Source of the DNA: a virus
Taxonomy: Duplodnaviria > Heunggongvirae > Uroviricota > Caudoviricetes
Length of the DNA: 19,056 nucleotides
IMG/VR virus record: IMGVR_UViG_2713896899_000019
Coordinates: 1 to 19,056 of that record
Reading direction: 5' to 3' (one strand)
The notes under the pieces were generated by a model. The model ran no database searches. It saw only the letters and a list, made by a program, of their open reading frames with translations, and was not told where the DNA came from. The stretch's first letter is position 1. Each line of letters opens with the position of its first letter. Of the stretch, positions 1,762 through 19,056 are shown in pieces. Made by a program: the position numbers and the translations under genes.

Positions 1762-1764
1762 TCT

Positions 1765-2007: not shown

Positions 2008-2011
2008 TCCT

Positions 2012-2732: not shown

Positions 2733-2828
2733 TCAGTAATTCATTAAAAATTTATATTCAATCAGCGTACCGAAAACGACGGACGCCAGCAGCAGACTAA
2801 ACAGTATGGACAGGAGGAATGACTTCAT
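2733..2828 (-). CDS. Small hydrophobic peptide (31 aa), putative single-pass membrane protein
   Basis: Hand-translated as MKSFLLSILFSLLLASVVFGTLIEYKFLMNY. Its start overlaps the upstream stop as TGATG at 2826-2830. Confidence 0.3.
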   Translation of the reverse strand: MKSFLLSILFSLLLASVVFGTLIEYKFLMNY

Positions 2829-3049: not shown

Positions 3050-3388
3050 TTACATGTTCCCCATAACGGTATCGCTCATGTCGTTGACCATGCTCTGCCA
3101 GATTTCTTTGCCGCTTTGCGTCAGCTCGTTTCCACGAACGCATTTGCTTAACAGTTGAATACCAACGGCTTCCCATTGGGGGTAATTTTCTTTGATAGCC
3201 TTCAGAGCATAACCATCGATTAAGTCCCTGATGCCTTTAACCCCACCGATGATGTTTACTCGTATGGATTGCCCATTGACATTAATCAGGAAATGACCAC
3301 CGCTGGTGGCGGATATGTGGTTGTGCAGTGCCGCCGCATACTGATTTGCCAGCGCATTGAGGCGGAAATTTTGTGTAATGAGTGACAT
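3050..3388 (-). CDS. Hypothetical phage protein (112 aa)
   Basis: ORF whose start overlaps the upstream stop as TAATG at 3386-3390. Confidence 0.55.
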   Translation of the reverse strand: MSLITQNFRLNALANQYAAALHNHISATSGGHFLINVNGQSIRVNIIGGVKGIRDLIDGYALKAIKENYPQWEAVGIQLLSKCVRGNELTQSGKEIWQSMVNDMSDTVMGNM

Positions 3389-4134: not shown

Positions 4135-4145
4135 TTTCGTCCACC

Positions 4146-4724
4146 TCAGTGCATAACCGGCATGTCTGGCATACCGTCTTTCTGAATCAGTTCAATGAAG
4201 CTGTCATGTAGTATGTTGAGTCCCTCCCGGCCCATCGCTGACAGCCTGAATCCGCATTTCTCGTCAGTTACAACCATGTCCTGATACATACGCAGCGCCA
4301 TCTGCTGGCCAACGTCAGGCCCGTATTTTTCAATTGCGCCCGCCTCGATATGGTTAGCGAGCGCGAAGCGCTCAGACCATGGATAAATGCTGATTGAACC
4401 GGGTTTTCCTGTGTATACAACGGCTGTATCTACGCCGCCCTTGTCATTCTGAACATCGACAGTCCCGTTCTTCTCCTGCTCCTCAGCAATGAACACGGCG
4501 ACAACAAGCCAGCGCCATAGGATGATTTGTTTTTCAATACACGGCATAAACCAGCCGCTTTCAATCCCTTCCATAATGCAAGCTATCAGATCGAGCCCGT
4601 CCGGAATTCGTTTGTCATAGTTACCGTTGTCGATCTGGCGAACCGCAGTTGAATAACCAATAATTCGATTACCAAAACGGATGCCTGTTAATGTAGGTTC
4701 AGGGGTAATGGTTGAATTAATCAT
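4146..4724 (-). CDS. Hypothetical phage protein (192 aa)
   Basis: ORF track gives a TTG start at 4727; the adjacent ATG at 4724-4722 with AAGGAGAG about 6 nt upstream is the more likely start. Confidence 0.6.
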   Translation of the reverse strand: MINSTITPEPTLTGIRFGNRIIGYSTAVRQIDNGNYDKRIPDGLDLIACIMEGIESGWFMPCIEKQIILWRWLVVAVFIAEEQEKNGTVDVQNDKGGVDTAVVYTGKPGSISIYPWSERFALANHIEAGAIEKYGPDVGQQMALRMYQDMVVTDEKCGFRLSAMGREGLNILHDSFIELIQKDGMPDMPVMH

Positions 4725-4757
4725 CAATACTCTCCTTTTGGTTTGAAGGTTTATTGT

Positions 4758-4979
4758 TCATTTCCGGTCCTTAACTTTGCTGTATCGTTCATGGCTCATT
4801 ACTTCCCAGTTCTGGCCGCCGTCTCGGGACAGCAGCCGCCAGCGGCGATTAACCCTCAGACTCAGGTTTCCGGAGCCGTGCATACGACAGGGATGAATTC
4901 GTCTGGCTCTGAACTGGCGGAGAACACGGACCGCCTGCAGGTGCACCCACTCAGGAATTCGTATTGCTGTTAATGTCAC
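4758..4979 (-). CDS. Small arginine-rich protein (73 aa)
   Basis: GTG start preceded by GGAGG. High arginine content (…RVLRQFRARRIHPCRMHG…RVNRRWRLLSRDGG…). Overlaps the 3' end of the upstream 69-aa gene by 29 nt in another frame. Confidence 0.35.
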   Translation of the reverse strand: MTLTAIRIPEWVHLQAVRVLRQFRARRIHPCRMHGSGNLSLRVNRRWRLLSRDGGQNWEVMSHERYSKVKDRK

Positions 4980-5160
4980 CGATTTCCTCCAGATCAGGAG
5001 CGATTACCTGATATCCCGCTTTCTTTGCTATCCATAAGAAGGTATCCATGCTGGCAATCATCTCGTTATTGTGAACTTTACGGGTATTTATTACCTGACC
5101 ATTTTCAATCGTCATAATGATCTGTACTTTTTCGTGTATAAGAGGGGATAAATCAGACAT
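4951..5160 (-). CDS. Hypothetical phage protein (69 aa)
   Basis: Start overlaps the upstream stop as TGATG at 5158-5162. Confidence 0.45.
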   Translation of the reverse strand: MSDLSPLIHEKVQIIMTIENGQVINTRKVHNNEMIASMDTFLWIAKKAGYQVIAPDLEEIGDINSNTNS

Positions 5161-5519
5161 CAGTTAATTCCTCCACTGATATATTTCTCTTTTACGTAGT
5201 CAACAACCTCTTTTAAAAGGCCGTCCACTATCAGTTTCCCTGATTCAGTGAGATATTCCGTGTGTTGATTAATACCGATGGCATTCTGGTATGCGGTACG
5301 GATTGTTGCTTCTCCTTCCGTCCGTCCATATTCAACACGGGTAAGACCCTCAAATCGTAATAACAACTGGTTCATGAACTGTTCAGTTATTTCTATCGTT
5401 GTTATTTCTCCGTCCGGGAGGTCAACGACGAGCAGATTACTACCTGTTTTACGTTGCATCCGCCGGAGTGCCGCTGTTACCATGCGGCGACGATCTTTAT
5501 AAATGGTTGTACATGCCAT
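5160..5519 (-). CDS. Hypothetical phage protein (119 aa)
   Basis: ORF in operon orientation; no family recognised. Confidence 0.55.
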   Translation of the reverse strand: MACTTIYKDRRRMVTAALRRMQRKTGSNLLVVDLPDGEITTIEITEQFMNQLLLRFEGLTRVEYGRTEGEATIRTAYQNAIGINQHTEYLTESGKLIVDGLLKEVVDYVKEKYISGGIN

Positions 5520-5522
5520 TTG

Positions 5523-5621
5523 TTATTTCCCGTATGCTTTTCTGAGAAACAGTATTGCAACTGACCAGTATCCTGCATTAGCCATTAATAATGCGGTTTT
5601 ATAAGCGTTTCTATTTTTCAT
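5523..5621 (-). CDS. Small hydrophobic peptide (32 aa)
   Basis: Hand-translated as MKNRNAYKTALLMANAGYWSVAILFLRKAYGK. Stop lies 3 nt before the start of the 119-aa gene. Weak RBS. Confidence 0.25.
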   Translation of the reverse strand: MKNRNAYKTALLMANAGYWSVAILFLRKAYGK

Positions 5622-5703
5622 GCATCACCATTATTTTCTGGTTGTGGAAATCCACGACCAGAGGCCGTCATGTTTTTATGTGTGATTTTTTACTGAATGT
5701 TCT

Positions 5704-5895
5704 TTATTCGTTGCGTAGTGTTTCTATATACTCGTAAGCCATTTCACAGGTCTTATTCATGGAGCGAATGAGACAGCATAAATAATCGTCTGTCTCTCCT
5801 TGGTCGGGCGAATTCTTAAATATAAATTCAAGCATTGATGTATTCTCTTTTATTTGTGCCGCCACTTCCTCAAGAATATTTAATGGAGTTATCAT
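5704..5895 (-). CDS. Small acidic protein (63 aa)
   Basis: ORF in an AT-rich segment. Acidic composition (…EEVAAQIKE…DQGETDDY…EMAYEYIETLRNE). Start overlaps the upstream stop (5892-5895). Confidence 0.45.
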   Translation of the reverse strand: MITPLNILEEVAAQIKENTSMLEFIFKNSPDQGETDDYLCCLIRSMNKTCEMAYEYIETLRNE

Positions 5896-6116
5896 GTTCT
5901 TTGCTCCTTAAATGCATCGCATGCGCTTCTGGCGTATTGTTGTGCCAGTAAAAAGATATCATCCGAAAGTTCATCACATTCTTCATCACCGGAAGCCGAA
6001 ATGATTAACCCCGCTTCAAGCAGTACGGCAATGTGATGAAAAGCTGTCTCCGGTTCGTTGGTAAGGCCTTTGAACATTTTCATCTTATGCTTCCTCCTGA
6101 TTTTGTTTATAAGCAT
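5892..6116 (-). CDS. Small acidic protein (74 aa; start may be an internal Met)
   Basis: ORF in an AT-rich segment with an acidic stretch (…ASGDEECDELSDDIF…). Overlaps the 3' end of the 138-aa gene. Confidence 0.4.
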   Translation of the reverse strand: MLINKIRRKHKMKMFKGLTNEPETAFHHIAVLLEAGLIISASGDEECDELSDDIFLLAQQYARSACDAFKEQRT

Positions 6117-6501
6117 CAGTCAATAACAACATTGGATCACAGCCAAGAACATTAGCCAGAGGGATAAGCATGCTGATGGTTGGTTCGTACTCTCCGCTTT
6201 CCCACTGGATGATGATTTCTTCATCGAGGTCGAGCAGTCTGGCGAGTTCGGCTGTTGTTAAGCCGCAGTCTTCGCGTTGGGTACGAAGACGGTTGTTGAT
6301 TGCAGAATTTTTGTTCTGTAAAAGCATTGCTGACGATAGCTTTCTGGATATGCTATTTGTCATATCCCATGCCAGTCCTGCGCATGACTCTATATCGCTA
6401 GAGAGCGTAGCATCTGGTGTTGCTTTTGCTATTAGTGTAATGAGGCTGCCGAGGTTTTTCAGTTCTTCGAGACAGTCAAGAGTTGTAGCTTTATTGATCA
6501 T
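6085..6501 (-). CDS. HTH (XRE-type) domain protein with an unrecognised N-terminal domain; first gene of the leftward early operon
   Basis: 138 aa. C-terminal segment GLTTAELARLLDLDEEIIIQWESGEYEPTISMLIPLANVLGCDP is a typical XRE-family helix-turn-helix. It sits directly downstream of the putative OL/PL. Confidence 0.55.
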   Translation of the reverse strand: MINKATTLDCLEELKNLGSLITLIAKATPDATLSSDIESCAGLAWDMTNSISRKLSSAMLLQNKNSAINNRLRTQREDCGLTTAELARLLDLDEEIIIQWESGEYEPTISMLIPLANVLGCDPMLLLTDAYKQNQEEA

Positions 6502-6604
6502 GAGATGATACCTCAGTTACGAACTTTGCTTCATGGTAACTAAGGTATCAAGGTGTGGCAAGTGATTTTTGATACTTTGGTTTCTTTTTGTGTTTTGTGT
6601 CTGG
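6502..6604 (-). promoter_or_regulatory. Putative OL/PL region (leftward early promoter and operator)
   Basis: Candidate minus-strand promoter: -35 TTGCCA (plus 6556-6561), 17-nt spacer, -10 TACCAT (plus 6533-6538). The 12-mer TTGATACTTTGG (6569-6580) is identical to the 12-mer at the PR -35 (7308-7319). GATAC/GTATC pentamers occur at 6507, 6545 and 6571. Confidence 0.35.
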
Positions 6605-7261
6605 TCAGAAAATATCCCACCTGGCATCAACCACAACACCTACTATTTCGCAATCATTGTCCATTTCTATGATTGGATATTGTGGATTAAGGGGCTTTAG
6701 AAACGCCTTTCCCATTTCAGAAATATATTTTTTGAATGTTGCTTCATTGGTAGATTTTTTTCTGGCGATGACGTAACACCCTGAAAAAACTTCTTTATCT
6801 GGGTTGACAAGGATCGACATTCCTTCAGGAAATGTTATTCCTACGGGCGAAGTCATTGAGTCTCCGTGCACTTCCAGCCAGAACCCCCTCTCTCCAGCGT
6901 ATTTTACAGAATGCCTCCAATTATCCTGATCATACATGTTGTAGTCATCACCAGCAGTTGCGAATAATCCTGCCTGAACCCAGTTAATTACAGGGTAAGA
7001 GTGTGCTGTGTCTCTCTGTGGGCAGCTCTTAACATTATTTTCCCAATGCTTATCTTTTTCATCTCCGTTCTGAAGCCACTGCGGTGAACACTGCAGTGCA
7101 GCTGCGACTTTAAAAAGGGTGTCACCGTTGAAACTTTTTGTAAGGCCTTGCTCGGCTTTACTGATTGCAACTCTGGTGACCCCTGCTTTTTTAGCCAACG
7201 CATCTTGCGTTAACCCAGCTTTTTGTCGTGCGTTGATGAGGCGTTCACCTAAAGATTTCAT
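6605..7261 (-). CDS. cI: CI-like prophage repressor (HTH-XRE N-terminal domain, LexA/S24-like C-terminal autopeptidase domain)
   Basis: The ORF track extends to 7336, but the in-frame ATG at 7261-7259 (MKSLGERLINARQKAGLTQDALAKKAGVTRVAISKAEQG…) is preceded by AAGGAGA. The C-terminus has GDSM and a downstream lysine, as in S24 peptidases. It is divergent from the cro-like gene. Confidence 0.85.
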   Translation of the reverse strand: MKSLGERLINARQKAGLTQDALAKKAGVTRVAISKAEQGLTKSFNGDTLFKVAAALQCSPQWLQNGDEKDKHWENNVKSCPQRDTAHSYPVINWVQAGLFATAGDDYNMYDQDNWRHSVKYAGERGFWLEVHGDSMTSPVGITFPEGMSILVNPDKEVFSGCYVIARKKSTNEATFKKYISEMGKAFLKPLNPQYPIIEMDNDCEIVGVVVDARWDIF

Positions 7262-7372
7262 TTTTCTTCTCCTTTCATGGCTGCTGATACTAAAGTAACA
7301 GAATTTCTTGATACTTTGGATTCTCGCGTTTAACATTCTTGGATAACAGAGTATCCGGTGTGAGGCTAAAGA
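7262..7372. promoter_or_regulatory. Immunity-region control region (putative OR with PR rightward and PRM leftward)
   Basis: Rightward promoter: -35 TTGATA (7308-7313), 17-nt spacer, -10 TAACAT (7331-7336), about 37 nt upstream of the cro-like ATG. GATAC-containing motifs at 7286 and 7310, and the palindrome GGATAacagagTATCC at 7341-7356. A leftward -10-like TAGTAT lies upstream of cI. Confidence 0.45.
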
Positions 7373-7624
7373 ATGACCCTTTATGAAATATTAAAAACTC
7401 AATTTAAGACCAATGCCGCTATTGGCCGTAGGTTCCCAAAGAAAGGAAGGCCTCGTGGTAGTCAGGGAGTTGGAAAGTGGAAAACACGGGGCGTTCCGGA
7501 GGATGTTGCCATTCTCTGCCATCTGGATCCGAACATTCCATATACACATCCAAGCTTAGCGCGCACGGGAGAGGTGAAGGGCTTGTATGTCCCAGAATTA
7601 CGTTCAGACAGAGATGCCATCTAG
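7373..7624 (+). CDS. cro: Cro-like small DNA-binding regulator
   Basis: 83-aa ORF divergent from cI, with GAGG 8 nt upstream of the ATG. The cro call rests on position and size; no motif was aligned. Confidence 0.55.
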   Translation: MTLYEILKTQFKTNAAIGRRFPKKGRPRGSQGVGKWKTRGVPEDVAILCHLDPNIPYTHPSLARTGEVKGLYVPELRSDRDAI

Positions 7625-7880
7625 GTACTGCCAGGCAGACGAAGAGTGGATTCAGCAGCAGTTACAGGGGCTGCCTCCGTCACTGAGACGGAAGGTCGCC
7701 CTGAAATATGCGGAGGTATACGAAATCACTTTTGACGCTGAGCCTGTTTCATTCCGCAAGGAGAACAGAGCAAGGCACGAAGCAAACACAAGGCTCCGCT
7801 TGTTTGTGAGAAATCAGGGCAGAGCTTTACAGGGGTATACAACTCAGCCGCCCCTGGCAGGAACGCAATCGCGCTCCTGA
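7587..7880 (+). CDS. Hypothetical protein in the cII position (97 aa; start uncertain, alternative ATG at 7614)
   Basis: ORF immediately after cro, overlapping its 3' end. No family recognised. Confidence 0.4.
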   Translation: MSQNYVQTEMPSRYCQADEEWIQQQLQGLPPSLRRKVALKYAEVYEITFDAEPVSFRKENRARHEANTRLRLFVRNQGRALQGYTTQPPLAGTQSRS

Positions 7881-7936
7881 TTGGTACCGGGCTTAAAGGT
7901 GTCCGGTGGCTGAATCCCAAATCTCATTGCATTTGT

Positions 7937-8112
7937 GTACTAGCTAAGGAGTACATGCAAAATTCAGTGAGAGGAGGGGAGGGGGAGGAGTGCTCGTGTG
8001 TTAGTGCGAAGCACTGGAACAGGCTTTTCCAACAGACGGGTACATAGGTTAGGTAGATCTCGATCTAAAGGGGGATACCTCTGAAAAAACGGCTGTACCA
8101 TAAAGCTAGTAC
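7937..8112. repeat. Inverted-repeat-bracketed non-coding element (19-bp arms) containing a polypurine G-rich tract
   Basis: Left arm GTACTAGCT-aagga-GTACA (7937-7955); right arm TGTAC-cataa-AGCTAGTAC (8094-8112), whose reverse complement is GTACTAGCT-ttatg-GTACA. Inside are a 22-nt pure-purine tract (7969-7990, GGGGAGGGGGAGG core) and an AGTGCT…AGCACT hairpin (7989-8015). Confidence 0.5.
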
Positions 8113-8129
8113 AAAATGGATAAAAAAGT

Positions 8130-8498
8130 ATGAGTGAAGACCTGAAGCAAAATTTAATCGCTCTCCTGGAAGAGCAATTCATTCGCTCCGATGACAAAGT
8201 CGTTTTCGATTATGTGATGCAGAAAAAAATCAAGTCTCAGGGATACCATCTGCAACGCAATTTCAGCATCAGCATTAGCGGTGGTCGTAAAGGGTTTATT
8301 GATTGCCTGGTTACATCATCAGACGGCCAGCAGTGTGCCATTGAGGTCGATAAGAAGTCTCCCCGCAACCGTTCGTTGATGAAGCTGGCTCAGCTACCTG
8401 AGGGGATGTCAGGCTTTGTCCTGCTCAGGGATGGTAAGCACCCTCTTCGATATAGCGAGAACGGAATTGACGTTATTCGTGCGACGAAATTTAAGTGA
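8130..8498 (+). CDS. Small PD-(D/E)xK-like nuclease-fold protein (possibly VRR-NUC-like)
   Basis: 122-aa ORF. The segment GGRKGFIDCLVTSSDGQQCAIEVDKK resembles a restriction-endonuclease-fold core (hydrophobic strand ending in D, then E-x-D/K-K). Weak RBS. It sits just upstream of the replication genes. Confidence 0.4.
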   Translation: MSEDLKQNLIALLEEQFIRSDDKVVFDYVMQKKIKSQGYHLQRNFSISISGGRKGFIDCLVTSSDGQQCAIEVDKKSPRNRSLMKLAQLPEGMSGFVLLRDGKHPLRYSENGIDVIRATKFK

Positions 8499-8609
8499 GT
8501 TGATTCGGAAAGGGGCTGGCAGCCTTTGGGGAGACCACCAGCCATGTGAGGAGGAATCCATGAAAACCACATCACAAAATTATTATCTCATCACTGCGGG
8601 GACAGCACA

Positions 8610-10268
8610 ATGCAGCTGACAATCACGCCGAATTTTGCACAGGAGCGAGCGCTAAACATGTTGCGCCGTGACTGGAAGGCAAACGACACCTTCATGGTTT
8701 ACTCGCCAACAGGTAGCGGTAAAACGGGTCTGGCAGCCTTCATCGTTGCTGGTTTTGTCAGCCGTGGTATGCGTGTTCTGTTCTGTGTTCCGTACACCAT
8801 CCTGATTGGTCAGACGGCTAATCGGTTCGTGCAGTATGGTTTACCTGGAGATGAAATCGGTTATATCTGGGCGGATCACCCGAACTACGATCCGGACCGG
8901 AAAATTCAGATTGCCAGCGCTGACACGCTTATTCGTCGTGTTTTTCCTGAAAATATCGATCTGCTGATTATCGACGAAGCGCACCTGCGTAAAAAACGCA
9001 TCCTGAAGGATATCGAACGTCTGCGCGGCAAAGGCGTAAAGGTGATTGGCCTGTCGGGTACTCCGTTTTCTCCGTTCCTGGGCAAATACTATGACCGACT
9101 GATTAAGCCGACCACCATCGGCGAGTTAATCCAGCGTGGCGATCTGAGTAAATACGAATTTTACGCGCCAACTAAGCCGGATCTGAAAGGTGTTAAAACC
9201 ACATCTTCGCTTGAGTACGGCCGCGATTACAACGAAACACAGCTGGCTGAAATCATGTGCGGCTCTACGCTGGTGGGCGACATCGTACAGAACTGGCTGG
9301 AGAATGGTCGGGATCTACCTACCATCGCTTTCTGCGTCAACGTAGCCCACGCCAATTACCTGACAATCCAGTTTAACCTCGCAGGTGTTAACGCTGAGGT
9401 AATGACCGCAGACACTCCGGTAGATGAGCGCCAGACCATCATTCACCGCTTTGAAACTGGTGCAACGAAAATCATCGTTAGTGTGGGCGTTCTGGTGGCC
9501 GGCTTTGATAGTGACGTTCGTTGCATCATCTACGCCAGGCCAACAAAAAGCGAAATTCGCTGGTTGCAGGCACTCGGGCGTGGGCTGCGCACCGCACCGG
9601 GTAAAGAGTCCTGCCTTATCTTCGATCACAGCGGCACCGTGCACCGTTTGGGTTATCCGGATTCAATCGAGTACGACGATCTTCCCGGTAAGTCTGACGG
9701 CATGGAGGAAAGCGCGCGCCGCGCAGTTGAGGAACGGGCCGAAAAACTGCCACATGAATGCCCTCAATGCCACTACATGAAGCCAGCTGGCGTCTATGTT
9801 TGCCCTAAATGTGGACACAAGCCGCTGCGAGGTGAAGATGTTGATACTGACACTAGCCGCAAACTTAATAAGCTGGGTAAAAATCAGCATCAGTCGACGA
9901 AGACAGAGAAACAGTCCTGGTGGAGTCAGATCAAATTTTATCAGCGCCAGCGTGCTTCGCTGGGGCGTCCAGTCAGTGATGGATGGTGTGCTCACACTTT
10001 CAGGGAGAAATTCGGTGAATGGCCTGATGGGTTGAGCAGTTTCCCGATGGAAATAAGCCCAGAAGTAAGTAACTACATCAAACACAAGCTGATTCGGTTT
10101 GCCAAAGGCCGTCAGCGGACGCAGAGAACTATAGAAAAATTGCAGGCAACGATTCCTCTGTCTCAGGAACGAGGTGAGCGAAGCGAGATGCCAATAGGCA
10201 CTGAGGCTTGGCGCATCATGCAAGCAAAGCAACAACTCCAGAAAAATATAAACAGTTTGAGTCAGTAA
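8610..10268 (+). CDS. Replicative SF2 (DEAD/DEAH-box) helicase with C-terminal zinc ribbon
   Basis: 552 aa. Walker A SPTGSGKT, DEAH box LLIIDEAH, motif VI QALGRGLR, and zinc ribbon CPQCHYMKPAGVYVCPKCGH. Confidence 0.85.
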   Translation: MQLTITPNFAQERALNMLRRDWKANDTFMVYSPTGSGKTGLAAFIVAGFVSRGMRVLFCVPYTILIGQTANRFVQYGLPGDEIGYIWADHPNYDPDRKIQIASADTLIRRVFPENIDLLIIDEAHLRKKRILKDIERLRGKGVKVIGLSGTPFSPFLGKYYDRLIKPTTIGELIQRGDLSKYEFYAPTKPDLKGVKTTSSLEYGRDYNETQLAEIMCGSTLVGDIVQNWLENGRDLPTIAFCVNVAHANYLTIQFNLAGVNAEVMTADTPVDERQTIIHRFETGATKIIVSVGVLVAGFDSDVRCIIYARPTKSEIRWLQALGRGLRTAPGKESCLIFDHSGTVHRLGYPDSIEYDDLPGKSDGMEESARRAVEERAEKLPHECPQCHYMKPAGVYVCPKCGHKPLRGEDVDTDTSRKLNKLGKNQHQSTKTEKQSWWSQIKFYQRQRASLGRPVSDGWCAHTFREKFGEWPDGLSSFPMEISPEVSNYIKHKLIRFAKGRQRTQRTIEKLQATIPLSQERGERSEMPIGTEAWRIMQAKQQLQKNINSLSQ

Positions 10269-10269
10269 G

Positions 10270-11238
10270 ATGAAAACAGCAGCTGCAGCGAAAGGCCGCT
10301 GGCCTGAAATATTAGAGCACTTCGGCTTGCCGCCGATAACAGGAAAAAATCACTTCAAGGGTGAATGCCCGGTATGCGGTGCACGTGGCAAGTTCCGAAT
10401 TGATGACCGCGACGGTGCAGGAACGTGGATCTGTGTATGTGGTAGTGGCGATGGTATGAAACTTGTCACCCTGACACAGGCGAAGCCATTTAACGAGATT
10501 TGTACCGAAATAGACCGCCTGATCGGTAATGATTACCAACGGGTTAAAATCCCGGTAACCAGCAGCGCCACCAGCTTACGCAAACGGGTATTGAGCAAGT
10601 TTTCAAAACTGGAGGCACTGCGTGGTACATCCGGCGCAGCGTATCTTAATTCTCGTGGAATATTCAGTCTTCCTGCTGAGGCGATCCGGTTCAATGCCAG
10701 GCAGAGACACAACGGGAGTGTGTTCCAGTCTCTTTATTCACTTGCTACGGACGATAAAGGGGAGTTGTGCTATCTGCACCAGACTCTGCTTGATGGTGAT
10801 AAAAAAGCAGATATCGGTAGCAGTGCAAAGCGCCTCAAATCCCTGCAGGAAGATAACTATTTGGATCACGCTCGTTCTGTAGCTATCCGCATGTTTCCTG
10901 TTGCTAGCACTCTGGGTATCGCCGAAGGCATCGAAACAGCGCTGTCAGCGCACCAGATTTATAACGTGAACACTTGGGCAACCATTAACAGCGGCTTTAT
11001 GAAAAAGTTCCGCGTACCAGCTGGTGTTCTGCACCTGATTATTTTTGCCGACCGTGACGAGAACAGCGCCACCGGGCTGGCTGCGGCTTGCGAATGTGCT
11101 CATGCCAATCTGATGGCAAAGAATGACCTGCAGCGCGTGAGCGTGTACTGGCCGGATCACGATGATTTCAACAATATGCTCATGAACGGTGATCAGGTTC
11201 GAGAGCTGGTTTTCCATAAGAAAAAGGCGGTTGCGTAA
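10270..11238 (+). CDS. DNA primase (zinc-binding N-terminus plus Toprim domain)
   Basis: 322 aa. Cys cluster GECPVCGARGKF…WICVCGSGDG; Toprim-like acidic motifs GIAEGIETALS and LIIFADRDEN. Start is 2 nt after the helicase stop. Confidence 0.8.
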   Translation: MKTAAAAKGRWPEILEHFGLPPITGKNHFKGECPVCGARGKFRIDDRDGAGTWICVCGSGDGMKLVTLTQAKPFNEICTEIDRLIGNDYQRVKIPVTSSATSLRKRVLSKFSKLEALRGTSGAAYLNSRGIFSLPAEAIRFNARQRHNGSVFQSLYSLATDDKGELCYLHQTLLDGDKKADIGSSAKRLKSLQEDNYLDHARSVAIRMFPVASTLGIAEGIETALSAHQIYNVNTWATINSGFMKKFRVPAGVLHLIIFADRDENSATGLAAACECAHANLMAKNDLQRVSVYWPDHDDFNNMLMNGDQVRELVFHKKKAVA

Positions 11239-12095
11239 TGCGTACTGATAACAACGAACATAAAGCACTATTCACCATCCCGACGGCAGCGTACAGCTCC
11301 GCCCTCGCAAACATCAAGCCCCTGCCAGAGCAACGGAGAATCACCGGGCATAAGCAGACTGATGCTTATCTTTGGGTGCTGGAGGTTATCCGTCTGAACG
11401 AACCCGCACATCTGGATGCTGCTGAGGCTGCGCTGGTGAAAATTAAAATTTCCCCAAAAGAGGCCCAGGAACGCTATTCGCGTTATCTGCTGGCGAATGG
11501 TGGTGATCCTTTCCAGATTGCTTTCGGTACCATCGGCATGGATAACCCGGCACAGGCAATCAGGATCGCCCGGGAGAATATCAAAAAAGCAACATCAGTC
11601 AGGGCTACGTTTGGTAGCTATGAAGCAGCACTCGAAGATGTGGAAGCCGAGCGAGTGATCAAGTCTTCCCAGAAATTTATCGACGATCATCTCTGGGGCT
11701 GGACTGCAGCCGAGAAGACAGCGGGCAGAATTGATGGCATCCGTATGAATGAAATTGATGATCAGCGTCGTGCATATGTTGATGGCTATCGTGATGTACT
11801 GCCAGAGCCTCATACATTGTCAGACGTAGTTCGTGAGTTTGTTTACTGGGACTGGCTCTACAGTGTTCGCCACACTGCGTCTAAAGAACAGGGCGATGAG
11901 TATGGTTACTCTGAGCATCACGAATCGGTATATGACCGCGAGCGCTACCTTGAAAAATTGCTGATGACCATCAAACCGGTGACACGGGCTGAAGCCGTGG
12001 AGGTGTGTCGTTGGTTTTTGGCAAGCGGAAAGGGCGAATATATGAAAGACAATGGCGCGGCTGTTATTCTTAATCTGGTTGGGGAGTGTGAATAA
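11238..12095 (+). CDS. Hypothetical phage protein (285 aa) in the nin-region position
   Basis: ORF coupled to its neighbours by TAATG overlaps at both ends; no family recognised. Confidence 0.6.
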   Translation: MRTDNNEHKALFTIPTAAYSSALANIKPLPEQRRITGHKQTDAYLWVLEVIRLNEPAHLDAAEAALVKIKISPKEAQERYSRYLLANGGDPFQIAFGTIGMDNPAQAIRIARENIKKATSVRATFGSYEAALEDVEAERVIKSSQKFIDDHLWGWTAAEKTAGRIDGIRMNEIDDQRRAYVDGYRDVLPEPHTLSDVVREFVYWDWLYSVRHTASKEQGDEYGYSEHHESVYDRERYLEKLLMTIKPVTRAEAVEVCRWFLASGKGEYMKDNGAAVILNLVGECE

Positions 12096-12925
12096 TGAAG
12101 CTTGAGGCATCGCTAAAATACTTCAGTCCTCAGGGAATGTATATCGGCGACGATGTGAAAGGAACCTCTCCGGAACGTCTTACAGGCACCGATGTTATGG
12201 CGGCTATTGGTACCACCAGCAATCGTGAGCGGTTTGGCTTGGCGGCCTTCTTCGGGAAGGCCGGTATCAGCAAGACTGATGAGCAGATGGCAGTCCAAGC
12301 GCTGGCGCGTCACGCGATGGAAATTGCACCGAAGAATGTGCGTAAAGCAGCTGGTGGTGAATTTGGCTGGTGTATGCTGGTACTGGCGCAGTTTGCTTTT
12401 GCTGAGTATTCCCGATCGGCAGACACCAGCGTAACATGCCATAGTTGCAGTGGTACCGGACTAACACCCCGTAAGCAGGTCATTCGTAAGGTTTCATACC
12501 CATGGGGTAAAGCACCATATTGGGCCAGTCGCTCCCGTGCTGTTCGACCGTCAGACTGGGAGAAATGGACAGAGGTAACGGAAGTTGTACCAGTCGTTTG
12601 CGATGTATGTAAAGGGAAGGGAGTGATAAGTGCCAGGTGTCGTTGTGGTGGAAAGGGGGAGGTACTCGACCGCAAAGCTACAAGCGAGCGTGGTGCACCA
12701 GTGTTTAAAATCTGCGAACGTTGCAGCGGAAATGGATTTTCCACGGTACCGTCTACCACAGTATATAAAGTTGTACTGAAGCGGATACCCGAGCTACATG
12801 TCAGGACATGGACGCGTAATTGGAAGCCGTTTCTTGATTCTCTGGTTGACATTTGCCACCAGGAAGAGCGTAAGGCCGATATTGCTTTTCAGAATGTGAC
12901 AAGTTTTGGTGATGATGTGAACTAA
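12095..12925 (+). CDS. Putative late-gene antiterminator Q-like protein with four CxxCxGxG zinc-finger repeats
   Basis: 276 aa. Sits directly upstream of the candidate late promoter/terminator and lysis genes. Repeats CHSCSGTG, CDVCKGKG, CRCGGKG and CERCSGNG are DnaJ-type zinc-finger spacing. The Q call is from position plus zinc-binding character, not an alignment. Confidence 0.5.
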   Translation: MKLEASLKYFSPQGMYIGDDVKGTSPERLTGTDVMAAIGTTSNRERFGLAAFFGKAGISKTDEQMAVQALARHAMEIAPKNVRKAAGGEFGWCMLVLAQFAFAEYSRSADTSVTCHSCSGTGLTPRKQVIRKVSYPWGKAPYWASRSRAVRPSDWEKWTEVTEVVPVVCDVCKGKGVISARCRCGGKGEVLDRKATSERGAPVFKICERCSGNGFSTVPSTTVYKVVLKRIPELHVRTWTRNWKPFLDSLVDICHQEERKADIAFQNVTSFGDDVN

Positions 12926-12950
12926 GCTTAGGGTTTTTGCGACATTACAC

Positions 12951-12999
12951 TTGATTTTGTCCGAATCTGTCATGTATGCTTTTAAGCATGTGGAATAAT
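12951..12999 (+). promoter_or_regulatory. Candidate late promoter PR' with promoter-proximal -10-like pause element (qut-like region)
   Basis: -35 TTGATT (12951-12956), 18-nt spacer, -10 TATGCT (12975-12980). A -10-like AATAAT lies at 12994-12999 in the initial transcribed region, as in sigma70-dependent pause sites used by Q proteins. Confidence 0.4.
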
Positions 13000-13018
13000 G
13001 CGTAAATGATTTTGATAG

Positions 13019-13041
13019 AAGCCCCTTTCGGGGCTTTTATC
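13019..13041 (+). terminator. Intrinsic terminator (candidate tR', ending a short 6S-like leader RNA)
   Basis: Stem AAGCCCC / GGGGCTT with loop TTTC (13019-13036), followed by TTTTATCATTT. The T-tract is on the plus strand only. It overlaps the stop codon of the minus-strand 310-aa gene. Confidence 0.6.
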
Positions 13042-13972
13042 ATTTCAGCCCTTTTAAAAAGCGTTCGAAATTATGGAATTCAAGTTCATCCGCTGTCGAT
13101 GAGTATTTTATTTTGTTTGCGATGGGACGCAGATTTTTTTTAGTTAGGAATTTACTGGCTTCATGTTTCAGTTTTTTTAATCGCTTGATTCGTTCTTCGA
13201 TTGAACTGGCAATTTTGGCAACATTAGAAATTTCTGGGCTTGGGGCTGTTTGTAGATCAATACACTGAATTTTTTTTAGATCTTCTTTGAGCGCAACAAA
13301 AAAATCACGAAGATTGTTTTCTGGTAAAAGAACATGACTAAATGATACTTTTCCTATGTAGAATTCACTTATTGCCTCTCCAGACTCGCGCATGTGTTCA
13401 TTCATTGCGAACAGAATTGTTTTGGTATTCTTATCAGTTTCCACTTCAGAAAGGGTTACAAGGCCTGTCTGGCTCTTGGTCAAAAAACGAATTTCTGTAG
13501 CACCAAGTCTTCCGGAGTAATTGGAATTTTTACTATTTTCGATGGTAGAAGATAGATAATCTATTGTGGGTTTGATATTTCGTATCGTTTCAATATTTTT
13601 TTGCCACTCTTCACATTTACTTTTTGCGGTGCTAATAATTTCCCGATTGGTTTCGAGTTGCATAAATTTATTGAAACTAAGAACGTTTTCACCAAATTCC
13701 ACACCAAATTCGTTTTTACCACATTTATTTCCGATGTTGGTTTCAATGCCACTAGATGTTTTTACAATATAACCCATTTGATGTGGTTGGTTGCAACCAG
13801 TTAGACCACAGTGGATTTCTTCTTTAAATTTGTAGTAACCAATTATCTCCTCAAGTTGTTGAACTCCTTTGTCTATAGTGGTGACAAAGTTTGGTCTGGA
13901 TATAATTTCCTCCCAGTTTTCAAGTTTCTCGATGCCGTTTTCAGTTCTGAGAAAAATCATGAATCGCTCCAT
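13040..13972 (-). CDS. AT-rich hypothetical protein (310 aa; likely start at the ATG at 13960), moron oriented against late transcription
   Basis: Long ORF rich in K/N/I/E. Hand counts of two 60-nt lines give about 32-33% G+C against about 50% in flanking phage genes. GGAG lies 8 nt upstream of the internal ATG at 13960. No family recognised. Confidence 0.6.
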   Translation of the reverse strand: MERFMIFLRTENGIEKLENWEEIISRPNFVTTIDKGVQQLEEIIGYYKFKEEIHCGLTGCNQPHQMGYIVKTSSGIETNIGNKCGKNEFGVEFGENVLSFNKFMQLETNREIISTAKSKCEEWQKNIETIRNIKPTIDYLSSTIENSKNSNYSGRLGATEIRFLTKSQTGLVTLSEVETDKNTKTILFAMNEHMRESGEAISEFYIGKVSFSHVLLPENNLRDFFVALKEDLKKIQCIDLQTAPSPEISNVAKIASSIEERIKRLKKLKHEASKFLTKKNLRPIANKIKYSSTADELEFHNFERFLKGLK

Positions 13973-14074
13973 TTGAAAGTGGACCGTTTATTTTATCGGC
14001 ATAAAAATGAGAACACCACAAGTTATTTTATTACCGAATACTTGGTAAAGATGGGTAACTTCGCCACACAGCTT

Positions 14075-14098
14075 AAACCCGCCGCCGTGCGGTTTTTT
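14075..14098 (+). terminator. Possible weak intrinsic terminator
   Basis: Short GC stem CCGC/GCGG (14079-14092) followed by TTTTTT (14093-14098). The stem is only about 4 bp, so this is tentative. Confidence 0.3.
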
Positions 14099-14369
14099 GT
14101 CTGCACAACAGGTAAGAGCATTCTCCCTTATGGGGCTTGGCTTAAATGCACTGAGTGCTCTTATCGTTGTGCTGAATTAAGCGAATACCGGAAGCAGAAC
14201 CGGATCACCAAATGCGTACAGGCGTCATCGCCGCCCAGCAACAGCACAACCCAAACTGAGCCGTAGCCACTGGCTGTCCTGAATTCATCAGTGATAGTTA
14301 CGCTGCGGCCTTCTTTTCCCCATTCCCAATATAAGAACTACGCAATCCGTTACTTGCGGAGGCGTTGCT

Positions 14370-14585
14370 ATGAAATCCATGGACAAAATTTCAACGGGCA
14401 TTGCCTACGGCACCTCCGCAGGCAGTGCTGGCTACTGGTTTTTACAGTGGCTTGATCAGGTCAGTCCGTCACAGTGGGCTGCGATTGGTGTACTGGGGAG
14501 TCTGGTTCTGGGCTTCCTGACTTATCTGACAAATCTGTACTTCAAAATCAGAGAAGACAAGCGTAAGGCTGCACGGGGAGAGTAA
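14370..14585 (+). CDS. S: Class II holin, phage 21 S21-like pinholin (dual start Met1/Met4)
   Basis: 71 aa, [71 protein letters not shown]. Two transmembrane segments and a charged C-terminus; closely matches my recollection of S21. Confidence 0.85.
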
Positions 14586-14589
14586 TTCA

Positions 14590-14940
14590 ATGACTCAAAA
14601 CTATGAACTGATTGTGAAAGGGATCCGCAATTTTGAGAATAAAGTTACGGTAACTTTAGCGTTACGGGACAAAAAACGCTTTGACGGTGAAATTTTTGAC
14701 CTGGACATCTCGCTGGACCGTGTTGAAGGTGCCGCGCTGGAGTTTTATGAGGCAGCAGCCAGAAGGGGCATCAGACAGGTCTTCCTGGATGTTGCTGCCG
14801 GGTTATGTGAAGGGGATGAGCAGTCGCCGGAAAAGCGCCCCGTAATTTTAGATGCGCAGAATGTGTGGATAACCCACAAAGGAAAGCTACCAGGAAGAAT
14901 TACTGGTTCTCTGAAGACTCCTCCAGAATCACAACCTTAA
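14590..14940 (+). CDS. Hypothetical protein (116 aa) lying between holin and endolysin
   Basis: ORF with GGAGAG upstream of the ATG, starting 4 nt after the holin stop. No family recognised. Confidence 0.5.
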   Translation: MTQNYELIVKGIRNFENKVTVTLALRDKKRFDGEIFDLDISLDRVEGAALEFYEAAARRGIRQVFLDVAAGLCEGDEQSPEKRPVILDAQNVWITHKGKLPGRITGSLKTPPESQP

Positions 14941-15003
14941 GTCACTGACCGGAACAGATAAACCTGTCCGTGGGCAGAAACCGATAAATCCTGATAAATA
15001 TCC

Positions 15004-15537
15004 ATGAACGCAAAAATCAGATACGGCCTGTCGGCTGCCGTTCTGGCACTGATTGCCGTCGGTGCGCCCGCTCCTGATATTCTCGACCAGTTTCTGGATG
15101 AAAAAGAAGGTAACCACACAACGGCATACCGCGATGGGTCCGGCATCTGGACCATCTGTCGGGGTGCCACGATGGTGGATGGAAAACCCGTTTTTCCCGG
15201 TATGAAACTGTCGAAGGAAAAATGCGACCAGGTCAACGCCATTGAGCGTGATAAGGCGCTGGCATGGGTGGAGCGCAATATTAAAGTACCACTGACCGAA
15301 CCACAAAAAGCGGGTATCGCGTCATTTTGTCCCTATAACATTGGCCCCGGTAAGTGTTTTCCGTCGACGTTTTATAAGCGACTGAATGCCGGTGATCGTA
15401 AAGGTGCATGCGAGGCGATTCGCTGGTGGATAAAAGATGGTGGGCGCGATTGCCGCATACGTTCAAATAACTGCTATGGACAGGTTATTCGTCGTGACCA
15501 GGAAAGCGCATTAGCCTGTTGGGGGATAGATCAGTGA
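15004..15537 (+). CDS. R: SAR endolysin (lysozyme, T4-lysozyme-like fold, R21-type)
   Basis: 177 aa. N-terminal signal-anchor-release segment [22 protein letters not shown], then the catalytic-region pattern [20 protein letters not shown]. Confidence 0.85.
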
Positions 15538-15998
15538 GCAGAGTCGCCGCGATTATTTATGCTCTGGTTATCTGCATCATCGTCTGCCTGTCGTGGGCGG
15601 TCAATCATTACCGTGATAACGCCATCGCCTACAAAGAACAGCGTGATAAAAAAGTCAGTGAGCTGAAGCAGGCGATCGCCACCATCGCTGACATGCAGCA
15701 GCGTCAGCGTGATGTTGCTGCTCTCGATGCAAAGTACTCGAGAGAATTAGCCAATGCGAAAGCTGAAAATGAAACTCTGCGCGCTGATGTTGCCGCTGGT
15801 CGTCGTCGGTTGCACATCAAAGCAGTCTGTCAGTCAGTGCGTGAAGCCACCACCGCCTCCGGCGTGGATAATGCAACCAGCCCCCGACTGGAAGACACCG
15901 CTGAACGGGATTATTTCACCCTCAGAGAGCGGCTGATGACGATGCAGATGCAACTGGAAGGGGCACAGGAGTATATCCGCACTCAGTGCATTAAGTAG
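15534..15998 (+). CDS. Rz: Rz i-spanin
   Basis: GTG start overlapping the endolysin stop (GTGA). N-terminal transmembrane segment [25 protein letters not shown] followed by a coiled-coil-like region; strongly resembles lambda Rz. The ORF track gives an alternative TTG start at 15519. Confidence 0.8.
15754..15936 (+). CDS. Rz1: Rz1 o-spanin lipoprotein (embedded in Rz, +1 frame)
   Basis: 60 aa. Signal peptide with lipobox LVVVGC, proline-rich PPPPPAW; lies entirely within Rz, as in lambda. Confidence 0.75.
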
Positions 15999-16040
15999 CC
16001 TTTTTATCGTGGTAAACATTTCGCAGGGTATGAGGTATTT

Positions 16041-16391
16041 ATGCCATCACTAATTCCACGTGCCTGCCGTAAGCGTGGATGTGCAGGTACAACCACAGAC
16101 AGTTCTGGTTACTGCGATAAACATCGTGGCGAAGGATGGGTACAGCATCAACGCGGACTGAGTCGCCACCAGCGTGGCTATGGCTCGAAATGGGATGCCA
16201 TACGTGCGCGCATACTGAAGCGTGATAATCATCTGTGTCAGAACTGCCTGCGCAATGGGAGAGCCGTTGAAGCCAGAACTGTGGACCACATCATTCCGAA
16301 AGCTCATGGTGGCACGGATGCAGACAGTAACCTGCAGAGTCTGTGCTGGCCCTGTCATAAAGCAAAAACAGCGCGCGAACGCATCAATTGA
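16041..16391 (+). CDS. HNH endonuclease (terminase-associated)
   Basis: 116 aa. HNH motif DHIIPKAHGGTDADSNLQSLCWPCHKAKT with flanking Cys pairs. Positioned immediately upstream of terS, as in HK97-type cos phages. Confidence 0.85.
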   Translation: MPSLIPRACRKRGCAGTTTDSSGYCDKHRGEGWVQHQRGLSRHQRGYGSKWDAIRARILKRDNHLCQNCLRNGRAVEARTVDHIIPKAHGGTDADSNLQSLCWPCHKAKTARERIN

Positions 16392-16414
16392 TAACAGTTC
16401 CCATCTGTAGGGGA

Positions 16415-16480
16415 GGGGCGGGTCAAATCTCTGCAGCCCTGGCTGCTCAGTACCGCCGCCTGACCCTTCCTCACATCGCC
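16415..16480. other. Candidate cos/packaging recognition region
   Basis: Intergenic stretch between HNH and terS. GC-rich imperfect inverted repeat GAGGGGCGGGTCA … TGACCCTTCCTC with GGGTCA/TGACCC arms, about 37 bp apart. Assignment is positional inference. Confidence 0.3.
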
Positions 16481-16539
16481 GCAGGTTCGAAAACTTTTTT
16501 TTGGAAATGTGATTAAACGATTGATAGGTAAAACCGATT

Positions 16540-17022
16540 ATGCCAGGACCCCCGAAAACCCCGCCACGCCTGCATTTGATACGAGGCAACCCCTCAAAAC
16601 GCCCCGTTAAAGACCCCAAAAAAACCGCTAAAAAGGATGAAAAAGGTCTCCCTAAAATTCCGCAACATTTAGGGGCACAGGGGAAGTACTGGTTCAGGCG
16701 AATGGCGGAAGAATTGAATGCGGAAGGGATCATTTCTCAGCTTGATGCGCGTGCACTCGAGTTACTGGTGGAAGCCTACACCGAATACCGGCATCACTGC
16801 GAAACACTCGATGTTGAGGGTTATACCTACCGCACGGAAACGCAGAATGGCGATGTGATGATCAAGGCACATCCGGCTGCGGCGATGAAGGCGGATGCCT
16901 GGAAGCGGATCCGGGCGATGCTTGCAGAGTTTGGTATGTCACCGGCAAGCCGGGCTAAAGTAAATACCGCCGGACCGGATGATGTTGATCCACTGGCAGA
17001 GCTTTTAAAAGCGAGAGACTGA
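16540..17022 (+). CDS. terS: Terminase small subunit (P27-family-like)
   Basis: 160 aa, immediately upstream of terL with overlapping stop/start. Sequence pattern matches my recollection of P27-type small terminases. Confidence 0.75.
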   Translation: MPGPPKTPPRLHLIRGNPSKRPVKDPKKTAKKDEKGLPKIPQHLGAQGKYWFRRMAEELNAEGIISQLDARALELLVEAYTEYRHHCETLDVEGYTYRTETQNGDVMIKAHPAAAMKADAWKRIRAMLAEFGMSPASRAKVNTAGPDDVDPLAELLKARD

Positions 17023-18779
17023 TGGCAAAAGTGGCTGACGGGATCCGTTACGCCGAACGTGTTGTTGCAGGAGAAATTGTTGCTGGCGAATTTGTCCGTC
17101 TGGCCTGCCAGCGTTTTCTTGATGATCTGAAGTACGGCGAAGAGCGGGGGATTTATTTCAGTGAACCCCGTGCACAGCACATCCTGAATTTCTACAAATT
17201 TGTGCCCCATGTGAAAGGGGCGCTGGCAGGCCAGCCCATTGAGTTGATGGACTGGCATGTATTTATCCTCATTAATATTTTTGGTTTTGTCATTCCGCTG
17301 GTGAATGAAGAGACCGGGGAAGTTGTCATGCGCAGCGATGGCAGCGGACGCCCGGTGATGGTGCGCCGGTTCCGGACGGCGTACAACGAAGTCGCCCGTA
17401 AAAACGCAAAATCAACCCTGTCATCGGGTATCGGCCTGTATATGACGGGGGCAGATGGTGAAGGCGGTGCTGAGGTGTATTCAGCCGCAACCACGCGTGA
17501 CCAGGCCAGAATCGTGTTTGAAGACGCCAAAAATATGGTCAGAAAAGCCCGGTCGACACTCGGGCGGTTGTTTGATTTCAACAAGCTGGCGATTTACCAG
17601 GAGCAGAGCGCATCAAAATTTGAACCGCTTTCCTCGGATGCAAACAACCTGGATGGTCTGAACATCCACTGCGCCATTATTGATGAGCTGCATGCACATA
17701 AAACCCGTGACGTGTGGGACGTTCTGGAAACGGCAACCGGTGCCCGTCTGCAGTCCCTGTTATTTGGCATCACCACGGCTGGCTTTAACAAGGAAGGGAT
17801 TTGTTACGAGCAACGCGATTACGCCATCAAGGTATTGCGAGGCTATAACAGCGACGTGGAGGGCGCGGTAAAAGACGACTCCTACTTTGCAATTATTTAC
17901 ACGCTCGATGAGGGAGATGATCCGTTTGATGAAACGGTCTGGCAGAAAGCGAATCCCGGCCTGGGCATCTGTAAACGCTGGGATGATCTGCGTCGTCTGG
18001 CGAAAAAAGCGAAGGAACAGGTCTCTGCGCGGGTGAATTTTTTCACGAAACACATGAATGTGTGGGTCACTGCCGAATCTGCCTGGATGGACATGATTAA
18101 GTGGGAGAAGTGCGAATACATTGCTCCACAGCATGAGCTGAAAACATATCCCATGTGGGTCGGCGTCGACCTTGCTCATAAGATTGATATCTGTGCGGCG
18201 GCAAAGCTCTGGCGAACCGATAACGGACATGTTCATGCCGATTTTAAATTCTGGCTTCCGGAAGGACGGCTGGAACGATGCTCGCGGCAGCAGGCAGAAC
18301 TTTACCGGAAGTGGGCAGAGATGGGGAAACTCATCCTGACGGATGGTGATGTTATCTATCATGCTCAGATAAAAAGTGACTTACTGGAATGGATTGGTGG
18401 TGAAAACCTGAGGGAACTGGGATTTGACCCGTGGAGTGCAATGCAGTTCAGTCTGGCGCTGGCTGAAGAAGGGATACCGCTGGTGGAAGTTCCGCAGACG
18501 GTCCGCAATCTGTCAGAGGCCATGAAGGAAACGGAATCACTGGTCTATGCCGGGCGTTTCCATCACAGCAATCATCCGGTCATGAACTGGATGATGTCTA
18601 ACGTTACGGTAAAACCGGACAAAAACGACAACATCTTCCCGAATAAATCCACGCCGGAAGCCAAAATCGACGGCCCTGTTGCGATGTTTACAGCAATGAG
18701 CCGGATGCTGGTCAATGGCGGTGAACCGGAGCCGGATCTGTCTGAACATCTGATTAGTGTTGGTATCCGCTCGCTTTAA
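17022..18779 (+). CDS. terL: Terminase large subunit
   Basis: 585 aa, located after terS and before the portal start. Size and synteny are typical of HK97-like TerL; no motif was aligned. Confidence 0.85.
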
Positions 18780-18790
18780 CCGAGGACATT

Positions 18791-18973
18791 ATGTTTCTGA
18801 TAATTCTCGCGCCACTGGTGGGCGTGCTGGGTGCGCTTTTGCTGGCGTATGGTGCCTGGCTGATTTATCCCCCGGCGGGTTTTGTTGTTGCCGGGGCGCT
18901 GTGCCTGTTCTGGTCGTGGCTGGTGGCGCGATATCTCGACCGTACACAGCCGTCTGTCGGCGGAGGTAAATAG
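18791..18973 (+). CDS. Small hydrophobic protein (60 aa) between terL and portal
   Basis: ORF with GAGGA upstream of the ATG; two hydrophobic segments; stop overlaps the GTG of the next gene. Confidence 0.4.
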
Positions 18974-19056
18974 TGTTCTTTTCGGGATTATTTCAACGAA
19001 AAAGTGACGCGCCGGTGACCACGCCAGCAGAGCTGGCGGATGCTATCGGGCTGTCA
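18973..19056 (+). CDS. Portal protein, 5' end only (truncated by window edge)
   Basis: GTG at 18973-18975 preceded by GGAGG. Reads [28 protein letters not shown] to the window end. Portal assignment is by synteny after terL. Confidence 0.4.
   Translation, partial: MFFSGLFQRKSDAPVTTPAELADAIGLS

Follow-up and report, generated by a model that had tools for sequence, protein, structure and literature searches.

A conserved AT-rich gene set antisense in the late leader of a lambdoid prophage is a candidate lysogen-specific accessory gene

The stretch of DNA analyzed here (positions 1 to 19,056 of IMG/VR record IMGVR_UViG_2713896899_000019, 19,056 nucleotides in all; hereafter the window) comes from an integrated lambdoid prophage, of which it forms the left arm. 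The gene under study, labelled X, lies on the minus strand at 13040..13960, between the genes for the Q antiterminator and the holin, and encodes a 306-residue cytoplasmic protein of PHROG 7003. X is a real gene under purifying selection, and it is an optional accessory gene in a variable slot. From its placement relative to a predicted late promoter and two terminators, and from comparison with related loci, X may be a functional prophage accessory gene (moron) that lies antisense in the late operon, is switched on in lysogens and off in late development, and serves exclusion or another lysogen-specific role. Taken as a whole, this reading falls just short of being probable.

The long, AT-rich reverse-strand open reading frame (ORF) singled out in a preliminary description of this DNA is present at 13040..13972 and spans 310 residues when counted from the first ATG. 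Given the base composition of the ORF, the chance that 310 codons stay open is ~5e-11, and the longest open frame across 1000 shuffles was 173 codons. Comparison of the X alleles of Escherichia coli, Salmonella and Enterobacter gave ratios of nonsynonymous to synonymous substitution (dN/dS) of 0.09-0.11 at dS values of 0.7-1.5. Given a dN/dS of ~0.1, the X protein is clearly functional, and a spurious ORF is ruled out by this purifying selection together with the ORF-length statistics. The G+C content of X is 35.6%, compared with 48.7% in the remaining window and ~51% in Q and the lysis genes, and X is the lowest-GC 933-nt stretch within the window; the contrast with the flanking DNA described earlier therefore stands, although the hand estimate of 32-33% was too low. 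The true start of X is most likely the second ATG (13960), giving a coding sequence of 13040-13960, since almost all homologues are 306 residues long and begin MIF, a GGAG ribosome-binding site (13967..13970, minus strand, read from the sequence and kept in relatives) is spaced 6 nt ahead of this ATG, and the upstream ATG is out of frame in two relatives (L048 and L054).

The context of X was analyzed in 72 loci. X was immediately convergent with a Q gene in 53 of them, the neighbor being a Q of the PF03589 type in 41 and of a DUF1133/PF06530-like type in 12 (Pectobacterium, Providencia, Proteus and others), and this position held down to 23-27% protein identity. The neighbor on the other side of X varied and included three holin types, stx2f, a nuclease and tRNAs; replication and lysis modules were freely exchanged among relatives. 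Relative to the window, X and Q were 78 and 81% identical, respectively, in Salmonella and 42 and 43% identical in Yersinia, and over Q-type-matched pairs, which are not independent, the identity of X followed that of Q with a Spearman coefficient of 0.90. The G+C content of X lay below that of its flanks in 71 of the 72 loci, so that low G+C is a family trait and not a sign of recent transfer. A recent, one-off acquisition is thus not what was found, given that X has co-diverged with Q across genera and occupies the same slot in the same orientation beside two unrelated Q families.

A cargo gene would not be expected with the same composition and at the same place in every related phage; here the low G+C is shared, but the gene itself is missing from some relatives. 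Related Q modules without X held a remnant (L077), forward-oriented cargo (L080) or insertion sequence elements (L081), and the first of these represents a deletion because both terminators and ~70 nt of the 3′ end of X are kept. Alleles of X at least 50% identical to each other were found beside unrelated Q families and, in at least three cases, Q genes that were 87-96% identical stood beside X alleles that were 26-29% identical. The window type of X is called allele A. The divergent type, allele B (26% identical), is carried by 22 E. coli genomes. It also occurs in phage vB_EcoS-611R1, which shares 86-100% identity with the window in its other genes. Either allele was present in some 16 + 22 (∼38) of the 5426 complete genomes of E. 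coli. The slot is therefore variable, as anticipated, in that related Q modules hold other cargo or nothing and alleles of 26% identity are swapped between near-identical phages. The Q C terminus, the late promoter and the divergent X allele seem to be exchanged together, as a single unit. A mosaic Q was also observed in ~20 E. coli genomes: homology to the Q gene of the window, at 97-98% identity, covers the first 644 nt and then breaks off (L079, 3001-3816). Frameshifted or truncated copies of X occurred in L002, L032/L033, L055, L056, L058 and L063, some of which are Stx2f phages. In the Stx2f phages with this Q (L002, which is phi467, L055, L056 and L058; L029 and L030), stx2fAB lies ~450 nt past the second terminator, and X is frameshifted in some of these phages and intact in others.

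The gap between Q and X is 114 nt long and contains a pR′-like promoter, the sequence AATAAT and a hairpin. The promoter-like element (12951..12980, plus strand) consists of a −35 hexamer TTGATT (12951-56), an 18-nt spacer with the conserved sequence TTGTCCGAA and a −10 hexamer TATGCT (12975-80). Its −35, spacer and −10 are kept in E. coli, Salmonella, Yersinia and other loci with this Q type. The −35 lies 26 nt past the Q stop codon, compared with 44 nt in lambda, and the element has the same place relative to that stop as lambda pR′; by analogy, it probably functions in a Q-dependent manner. The spacer sequence TTGTCCGAA and the −10-like AATAAT (12994-12999) are candidates for a Q-binding or promoter-proximal pause element. 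If the promoter is active, like lambda pR′, a short (~55 nt) terminated leader RNA should be made in lysogens (window 12987-13045), which may be likened to lambda 6S RNA and to the StxS small RNA of Stx phages; the predicted leader matched no Rfam family, and none was matched elsewhere in the window. A perfect inverted repeat, ATGCTT-TT-AAGCAT, at 12977-12990 overlaps the −10 and the start region of this promoter. Its Salmonella counterpart, ATGATT-CT-AATCAT, differs yet is also perfect, indicating that the symmetry is kept by paired changes, and the repeat could be a protein-binding site. Sequence-specific binding of this repeat by X itself was considered and discarded, as a single pR′ type is shared by loci that have allele A, allele B or no X.

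The hairpin in this gap (13017..13038) is strong, with a folding energy of −22.3 kcal/mol and z = −4, and carries a T-tract on the late strand. It ends 1 nt from the X stop codon (13040-42), and the T-tract overlaps that stop. The terminator noted previously between Q and X at 13019-13041 is thus well founded, and pR′ precedes it. In all 33 distinct Q-to-X gaps, covering two unrelated Q families, a GC-core hairpin with a T-tract on the Q strand was present, even though the stem sequences differ; its end was ≤6 nt from the X stop codon in 28 gaps and 12-49 nt away in the other five, one of which belongs to a frameshifted copy. On the X strand the same hairpin folds with −18.8 kcal/mol and is followed by a moderate U-tract, and for this reason it plausibly terminates both transcripts. 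The hairpin is, therefore, probably the first late terminator and also the terminator of X. Placement of pR′ between X and the second terminator was considered and discarded in view of the presence of the −35/−10 elements and the T-tract hairpin within the Q-to-X gap in 33 of 33 cases.

Upstream of X, a candidate promoter-like element was located on the minus strand (13990..14018), with −35 TGGTGT (14018-14013), 17 nt of spacing and −10 TAAAAT (13995-13990). Relatives with 57-86% protein identity keep the block ATTTTATCGCCATG..GATCACCA, which reads TGGTG(T/A)-17-TAAAAT on the X strand; a short leader with the GGAG separates the TAAAAT block from the start of X. Further upstream, a second late-strand terminator was called by a terminator scan at 14081..14098 (plus strand). 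The preliminary description had placed a possible second terminator at 14075-14098 and had taken the hairpin at 13019-13041 as the candidate tR′. The second terminator is indeed present, but its fold is weak in the window (−9.7 kcal/mol, z ~0), and it is this element, not the first hairpin, that aligns with lambda tR′ as its positional homologue. It is better formed and canonical in several relatives. On the 3′ side of the second T-tract, the window and lambda both read TCTGCACAACAGGTAAGAGCAT, and the block common to X-carrying E. coli prophages stops exactly at 14098. Between tR′ and the holin gene, a late leader segment (14155..14300, plus strand) is 96.6% identical to lambda 44845-44991 and is found in ~1000 E. 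coli genomes. In addition, short stretches of the window at 14104-14240 are 93-96% identical to phage-plasmids of the P1/P7/D6 type, in the region of their plp lipoprotein gene, which points to mosaic recombination at this joint.

Given that the second terminator aligns with lambda tR′, X and the first hairpin lie inside a leader of the lambda pR′-to-tR′ type. X is on the opposite strand between the element that appears to be pR′ (12951-12980) and the holin gene (from 14370) and thus has an antisense-nested position. As X is antisense in the late leader, Q-modified late transcription must cross X and read through two terminators to reach the holin gene, or stx2f in phi467. This crossing is deduced from the layout, which also supports the earlier proposal that late read-through would be antisense to X, since both pR′ and a terminator lie between Q and X. 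X is probably made only during lysogeny. In a lysogen, constitutive pR′ transcripts would stop at the first hairpin, and X would be expressed from its own promoter, its transcript ending at the same hairpin. Upon induction, Q-modified RNA polymerase would read through both terminators and run antisense across X, which would be shut off by polymerase collision and by antisense RNA. Such wiring would suit a product that serves the lysogen but is damaging, or of no use, while the phage itself goes through late development.

The X protein is soluble, with a mass of 35 kDa and a pI of 8.1, and lacks any hydrophobic segment (hydropathy over 19 residues reaches 0.73 at most). It matched PHROG 7003 over its full length (E 6.6e-111, residues 5-310 against profile positions 1-309), a family without functional annotation; no significant match was obtained in Pfam, NCBIfam or PADLOC, and a PDB profile search, like a Pfam search with 101 family members, gave coiled-coil noise alone. 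The previous statement that X belongs to no recognized family is accordingly borne out for Pfam, NCBIfam, PADLOC and the PDB. An exhaustive HMMER search returned 846 cluster representatives of the family, 522 of them at E <= 1e-10, and genomic contexts were seen for a minority of the 846. Among the best 150 matches most were full-length (~280-320 residues), some were shorter fragments and none had an added domain. Conservation extends over the full length of the protein down to 23% identity. A homologue search with a profile of the N-terminal domain, aimed at domain fusions, returned fragments alone, and a profile search of a word-indexed database with a divergent alignment made few additions. 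No description of the family was found in the literature searched.

Across 101 diverse members, residues Tyr-43, Cys-51, Cys-56, His-60, Gly-63, Gly-77, Cys-80 and Gly-81 were invariant and Thr-74, Asn-75, Phe-85, Phe-89 and Asn-276 nearly so. The Cys/His cluster noticed beforehand is thus real and corresponds to family-invariant residues. The codons of the resulting C51-x4-C56-x3-H60-x19-C80 site, which was also examined in AlphaFold2 models, span 13721..13810 on the minus strand, and the site presumably binds zinc. Conservation is concentrated at residues 40-90, whereas the C-terminal two thirds are far more variable. An AlphaFold model of X (predicted local distance difference test 86.8, predicted template modeling score 0.75) comprises an N-terminal β-rich domain (residues 1-85) and, C-terminal to it, a helical part that includes long helices. 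In the models the N-terminal β-barrel domain takes in residues 1-86 (13703-13960, minus strand); it may be a small barrel of the SH3/chromo-like kind, to judge from a weak similarity to the chromo, chromoshadow and SH3-like small β-barrels. Fold searches with the whole model matched generic helical bundles only. A nuclease of the HNH/His-Me finger type was considered for the H-C...C-N...H...N cluster and rejected, as neither a profile match nor a ββα-metal fold with a catalytic His was found, and a Bor/Iss lipoprotein was rejected on the basis of the missing hydrophobic segment and Pfam match. With no recognizable catalytic domain, X is most likely to work through binding to a protein or a nucleic acid. 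The zinc barrel is a candidate for the common functional core of the family, with the variable helical part as a possible specificity determinant.

Members of the family also occur away from Q. In prophages of Klebsiella, Pseudomonas (Hollowayvirus), Gilliamella and Pseudomonas fluorescens, X stands between the early-left operon and cI, convergent with the cI operon. In lambda this slot is occupied by rexAB. These near-cI loci also contain a conserved ORF of 74-93 residues without a Pfam match, which is on the repressor strand, convergent with X, and overlaps the 3′ end of X by 11-45 nt (L015 6911-7135; L022 6890-7171; L025 6865-7089; L065 6902-7129). A family member adjoins a toxin-antitoxin pair in Burkholderia phi644-2, and in non-phage loci members are found beside AbiJ, Fic, resolvase, integrase or HTH-M78 genes. 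At one Burkholderiales locus (L018 32-994), a gene for abortive infection of the AbiJ type (AbiJ_NTD3 + Abi_C) lies 228 nt upstream of the family member on the same strand. A second same-strand gene follows the X member in Pseudomonas phage Atpa001 (329 residues; L073 6000-6989) and in Klebsiella phage ST13-OXA48phi12.2 (144 residues; L072 5639-6073). Neither product matched Pfam or PADLOC, and nothing was found in the PADLOC search made with these two as candidate partners; they could be partner proteins in those lineages. A distant member, 33% identical to the query across the N-terminal 41% of the latter, is found in marine metagenomes (L008-L010). In four contigs, which come from different samples, it lies 55 nt 3′ of nrdA-nrdB in the orientation of those genes and is itself followed by a 79-residue ORF that matched nothing in Pfam.

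Of all roles considered, phage exclusion is the most likely for X, although on present evidence it is possible rather than probable. In its favor are the wiring, the exchange of alleles within a slot that itself stays put, the accessory character of the other slots and the defense-like neighbors. Several observations weigh against a lysogen-specific exclusion gene. The upstream element has a conserved −10-like sequence but a poor −35, and a consensus promoter scan made no call. The profile search of a defense database that had been suggested at the outset was negative, PADLOC assigning no family to nine members (X and eight diverse relatives) and giving one chance-level match (E 0.011). Neither profile nor fold searches with X detected an effector, membrane or nuclease domain. 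The marine nrdAB context does not look like a mobile element or an obvious defense context. Finally, the strong purifying selection on X and its co-divergence with Q are also compatible with a role in the biology of the phage itself.

That last point leads to the view that X regulates late transcription, terminator read-through or lysis timing of its own phage, which we consider unlikely. X is the first gene after pR′-tR′ in the 53 Q-linked loci and keeps this place beside two unrelated Q families; its identity tracks that of Q; in allele-B phages the mosaic junction falls inside Q, so that the Q C terminus, pR′ and X travel together; and the putative SH3/chromo-like barrel, weak as the similarity is, is a fold of several RNA polymerase-binding factors. 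However, one pR′ type is found with allele A, with allele B or without any X (L078, L077 and L080), family members near cI or outside phages have no Q beside them, and the spacing of 1 nt from the terminator would by itself explain the linkage. A lysogenic-conversion gene that alters host physiology or virulence is similarly improbable. Such a gene might well be found in the stx slot, reverse-oriented in the late region like bor and iss, and in E. coli of the gut, both commensal and pathogenic, as well as in Salmonella and Enterobacter, as is X; but X is cytoplasmic, with neither a signal peptide nor a membrane segment, no known virulence domain was found in X or the 101 members, and the family spans bacteria of very different lifestyles (Pseudomonas, Burkholderia, Gilliamella and marine bacteria).

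Less likely still is a counter-defense or other early-acting function exerted from its own promoter upon infection. The promoter-like element of X is independent of the late operon, and the swapping of divergent alleles at a fixed slot is a pattern of counter-defense as well as defense genes. The orientation of X makes this function unlikely, as counter-defense genes usually reside in early operons, whereas X is convergent with the strongest late promoter and would be silenced during replication; some relatives, moreover, are convergent with cI in the lambda rexAB slot. The idea that X is a decaying or selfish passenger, kept by its place between Q/pR′ and a needed terminator, is very improbable. 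It would account for the frameshifted and truncated copies and for the deletion remnant in L077, but not for a dN/dS of ~0.1 over dS 0.7-1.5 or for residues that remain invariant down to 23% identity.

The accessory-gene reading may be set against known systems. The term moron was reportedly defined by Juhala et al. 2000. Like morons, X is absent from some related phages, deviates in G+C, has its own terminator and is located where modules of the late region meet; a promoter of its own is a candidate. Unlike morons, it is not a sporadic insertion, since its place and direction are the same next to two unrelated Q families and it has co-diverged with Q, and its terminator doubles as the first late terminator. 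X thus appears to share the testable features of morons, with the promoter as a candidate. A transcriptomic signature of prophage accessory loci has been described (Owen et al. 2020, PMC7067206). In Staphylococcus aureus phage 80alpha, antisense-nested (noncontiguous) operons couple the prophage defense gene tha to the phage life cycle (Rostol et al. 2024, PMC11087260), which provides an experimental precedent for antisense nesting; X would work in the manner of a gene in such a noncontiguous operon. There the nested gene is the inhibitor ith, in the cI operon, whereas here it is the cargo X itself that would be nested in the Q-dependent late operon; the two systems have no relation in sequence or fold.

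Lambda bor and E. coli iss are, like X, reverse-oriented genes embedded in a lambdoid late region, and they are expressed in lysogens, as is predicted for X. Bor and Iss, however, are small lipoproteins encoded 3′ of the lysis genes, whereas X is a 35-kDa cytoplasmic protein with a putative zinc site, encoded between pR′ and the holin gene. The stx genes share the Q-to-S slot, stx2f lying immediately beyond X in Stx2f phages with this Q, but they are co-oriented with late transcription and dependent on it, whereas X is opposed to it. With respect to the Q-dependent late leader (pR′-qut-tR′), a predicted σ70-type promoter directly 3′ of Q followed by an intrinsic terminator is present in the window. 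The full-length match to PHROG 7003 identifies X as part of a family far larger than its phage set (846 representatives). Overall, X would seem to represent an uncharacterized family in a niche of known type, with a positional rule that is unusually strict.

The remaining features of the window are those of a lambdoid left arm. An integrase gene (1-1314, minus strand) and a gene for a cI-like S24 repressor (6605-7336, minus strand) are followed by helicase, primase and Q in this order, and then by X. The Q gene (12095..12925, plus strand) encodes a 276-residue protein of the lambda Q family (PF03589, E 1.5e-51) that is 32% identical to lambda Q (E 5e-39) and has a ~69-residue insertion. This insertion contains extra Cys-x2-Cys pairs and a weak match to the DnaJ CXXCXGXG-like motif, and the PF03589 match falls into two stretches. 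On the 3′ side of X are a P21-type holin, DUF1327, lysozyme, Rz, HNH and terminase genes, the holin gene (14370..14585, plus strand; PF04971, E 1.4e-35) being the first lysis gene of the late operon. The DUF1327/YdfR-family gene, at 14590-14940 between holin and lysozyme, is unusual in a lysis cassette. One relative of this prophage carries iss 3′ of Rz. The assignment of X to the Q-to-holin cargo slot is thereby confirmed, with the PF03589-type Q upstream, the P21-type holin downstream and, in the Stx2f phage phi467, stx2f next after X.

Phage phi467, an E. coli Stx2f phage with the same Q, has a candidate pR′ right after Q and ~1.5 kb upstream of stx2f; X and two terminators lie in the interval. 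A study of Stx2f prophages of Escherichia albertii reported no pR′/qut directly upstream of stx2f and a 276-residue Q in two strains (PMC10673567). The phi467 arrangement should affect toxin expression and may bear on that report. More broadly, it is conceivable, if doubtful, that the X family constitutes an unrecognized and widespread single-protein system of phage-phage conflict, in which a CCHC zinc barrel is joined to a fast-swapping helical specificity domain; the system would be active in lysogens and silenced by antitermination, sparing the prophage's own late development. If the predicted switch holds, it would be a simple solution, by genome layout, to the self-immunity problem of prophage-borne defense genes in many enterobacterial prophages, and X would provide an entry point to a family of 846 cluster representatives that is so far annotated without function.

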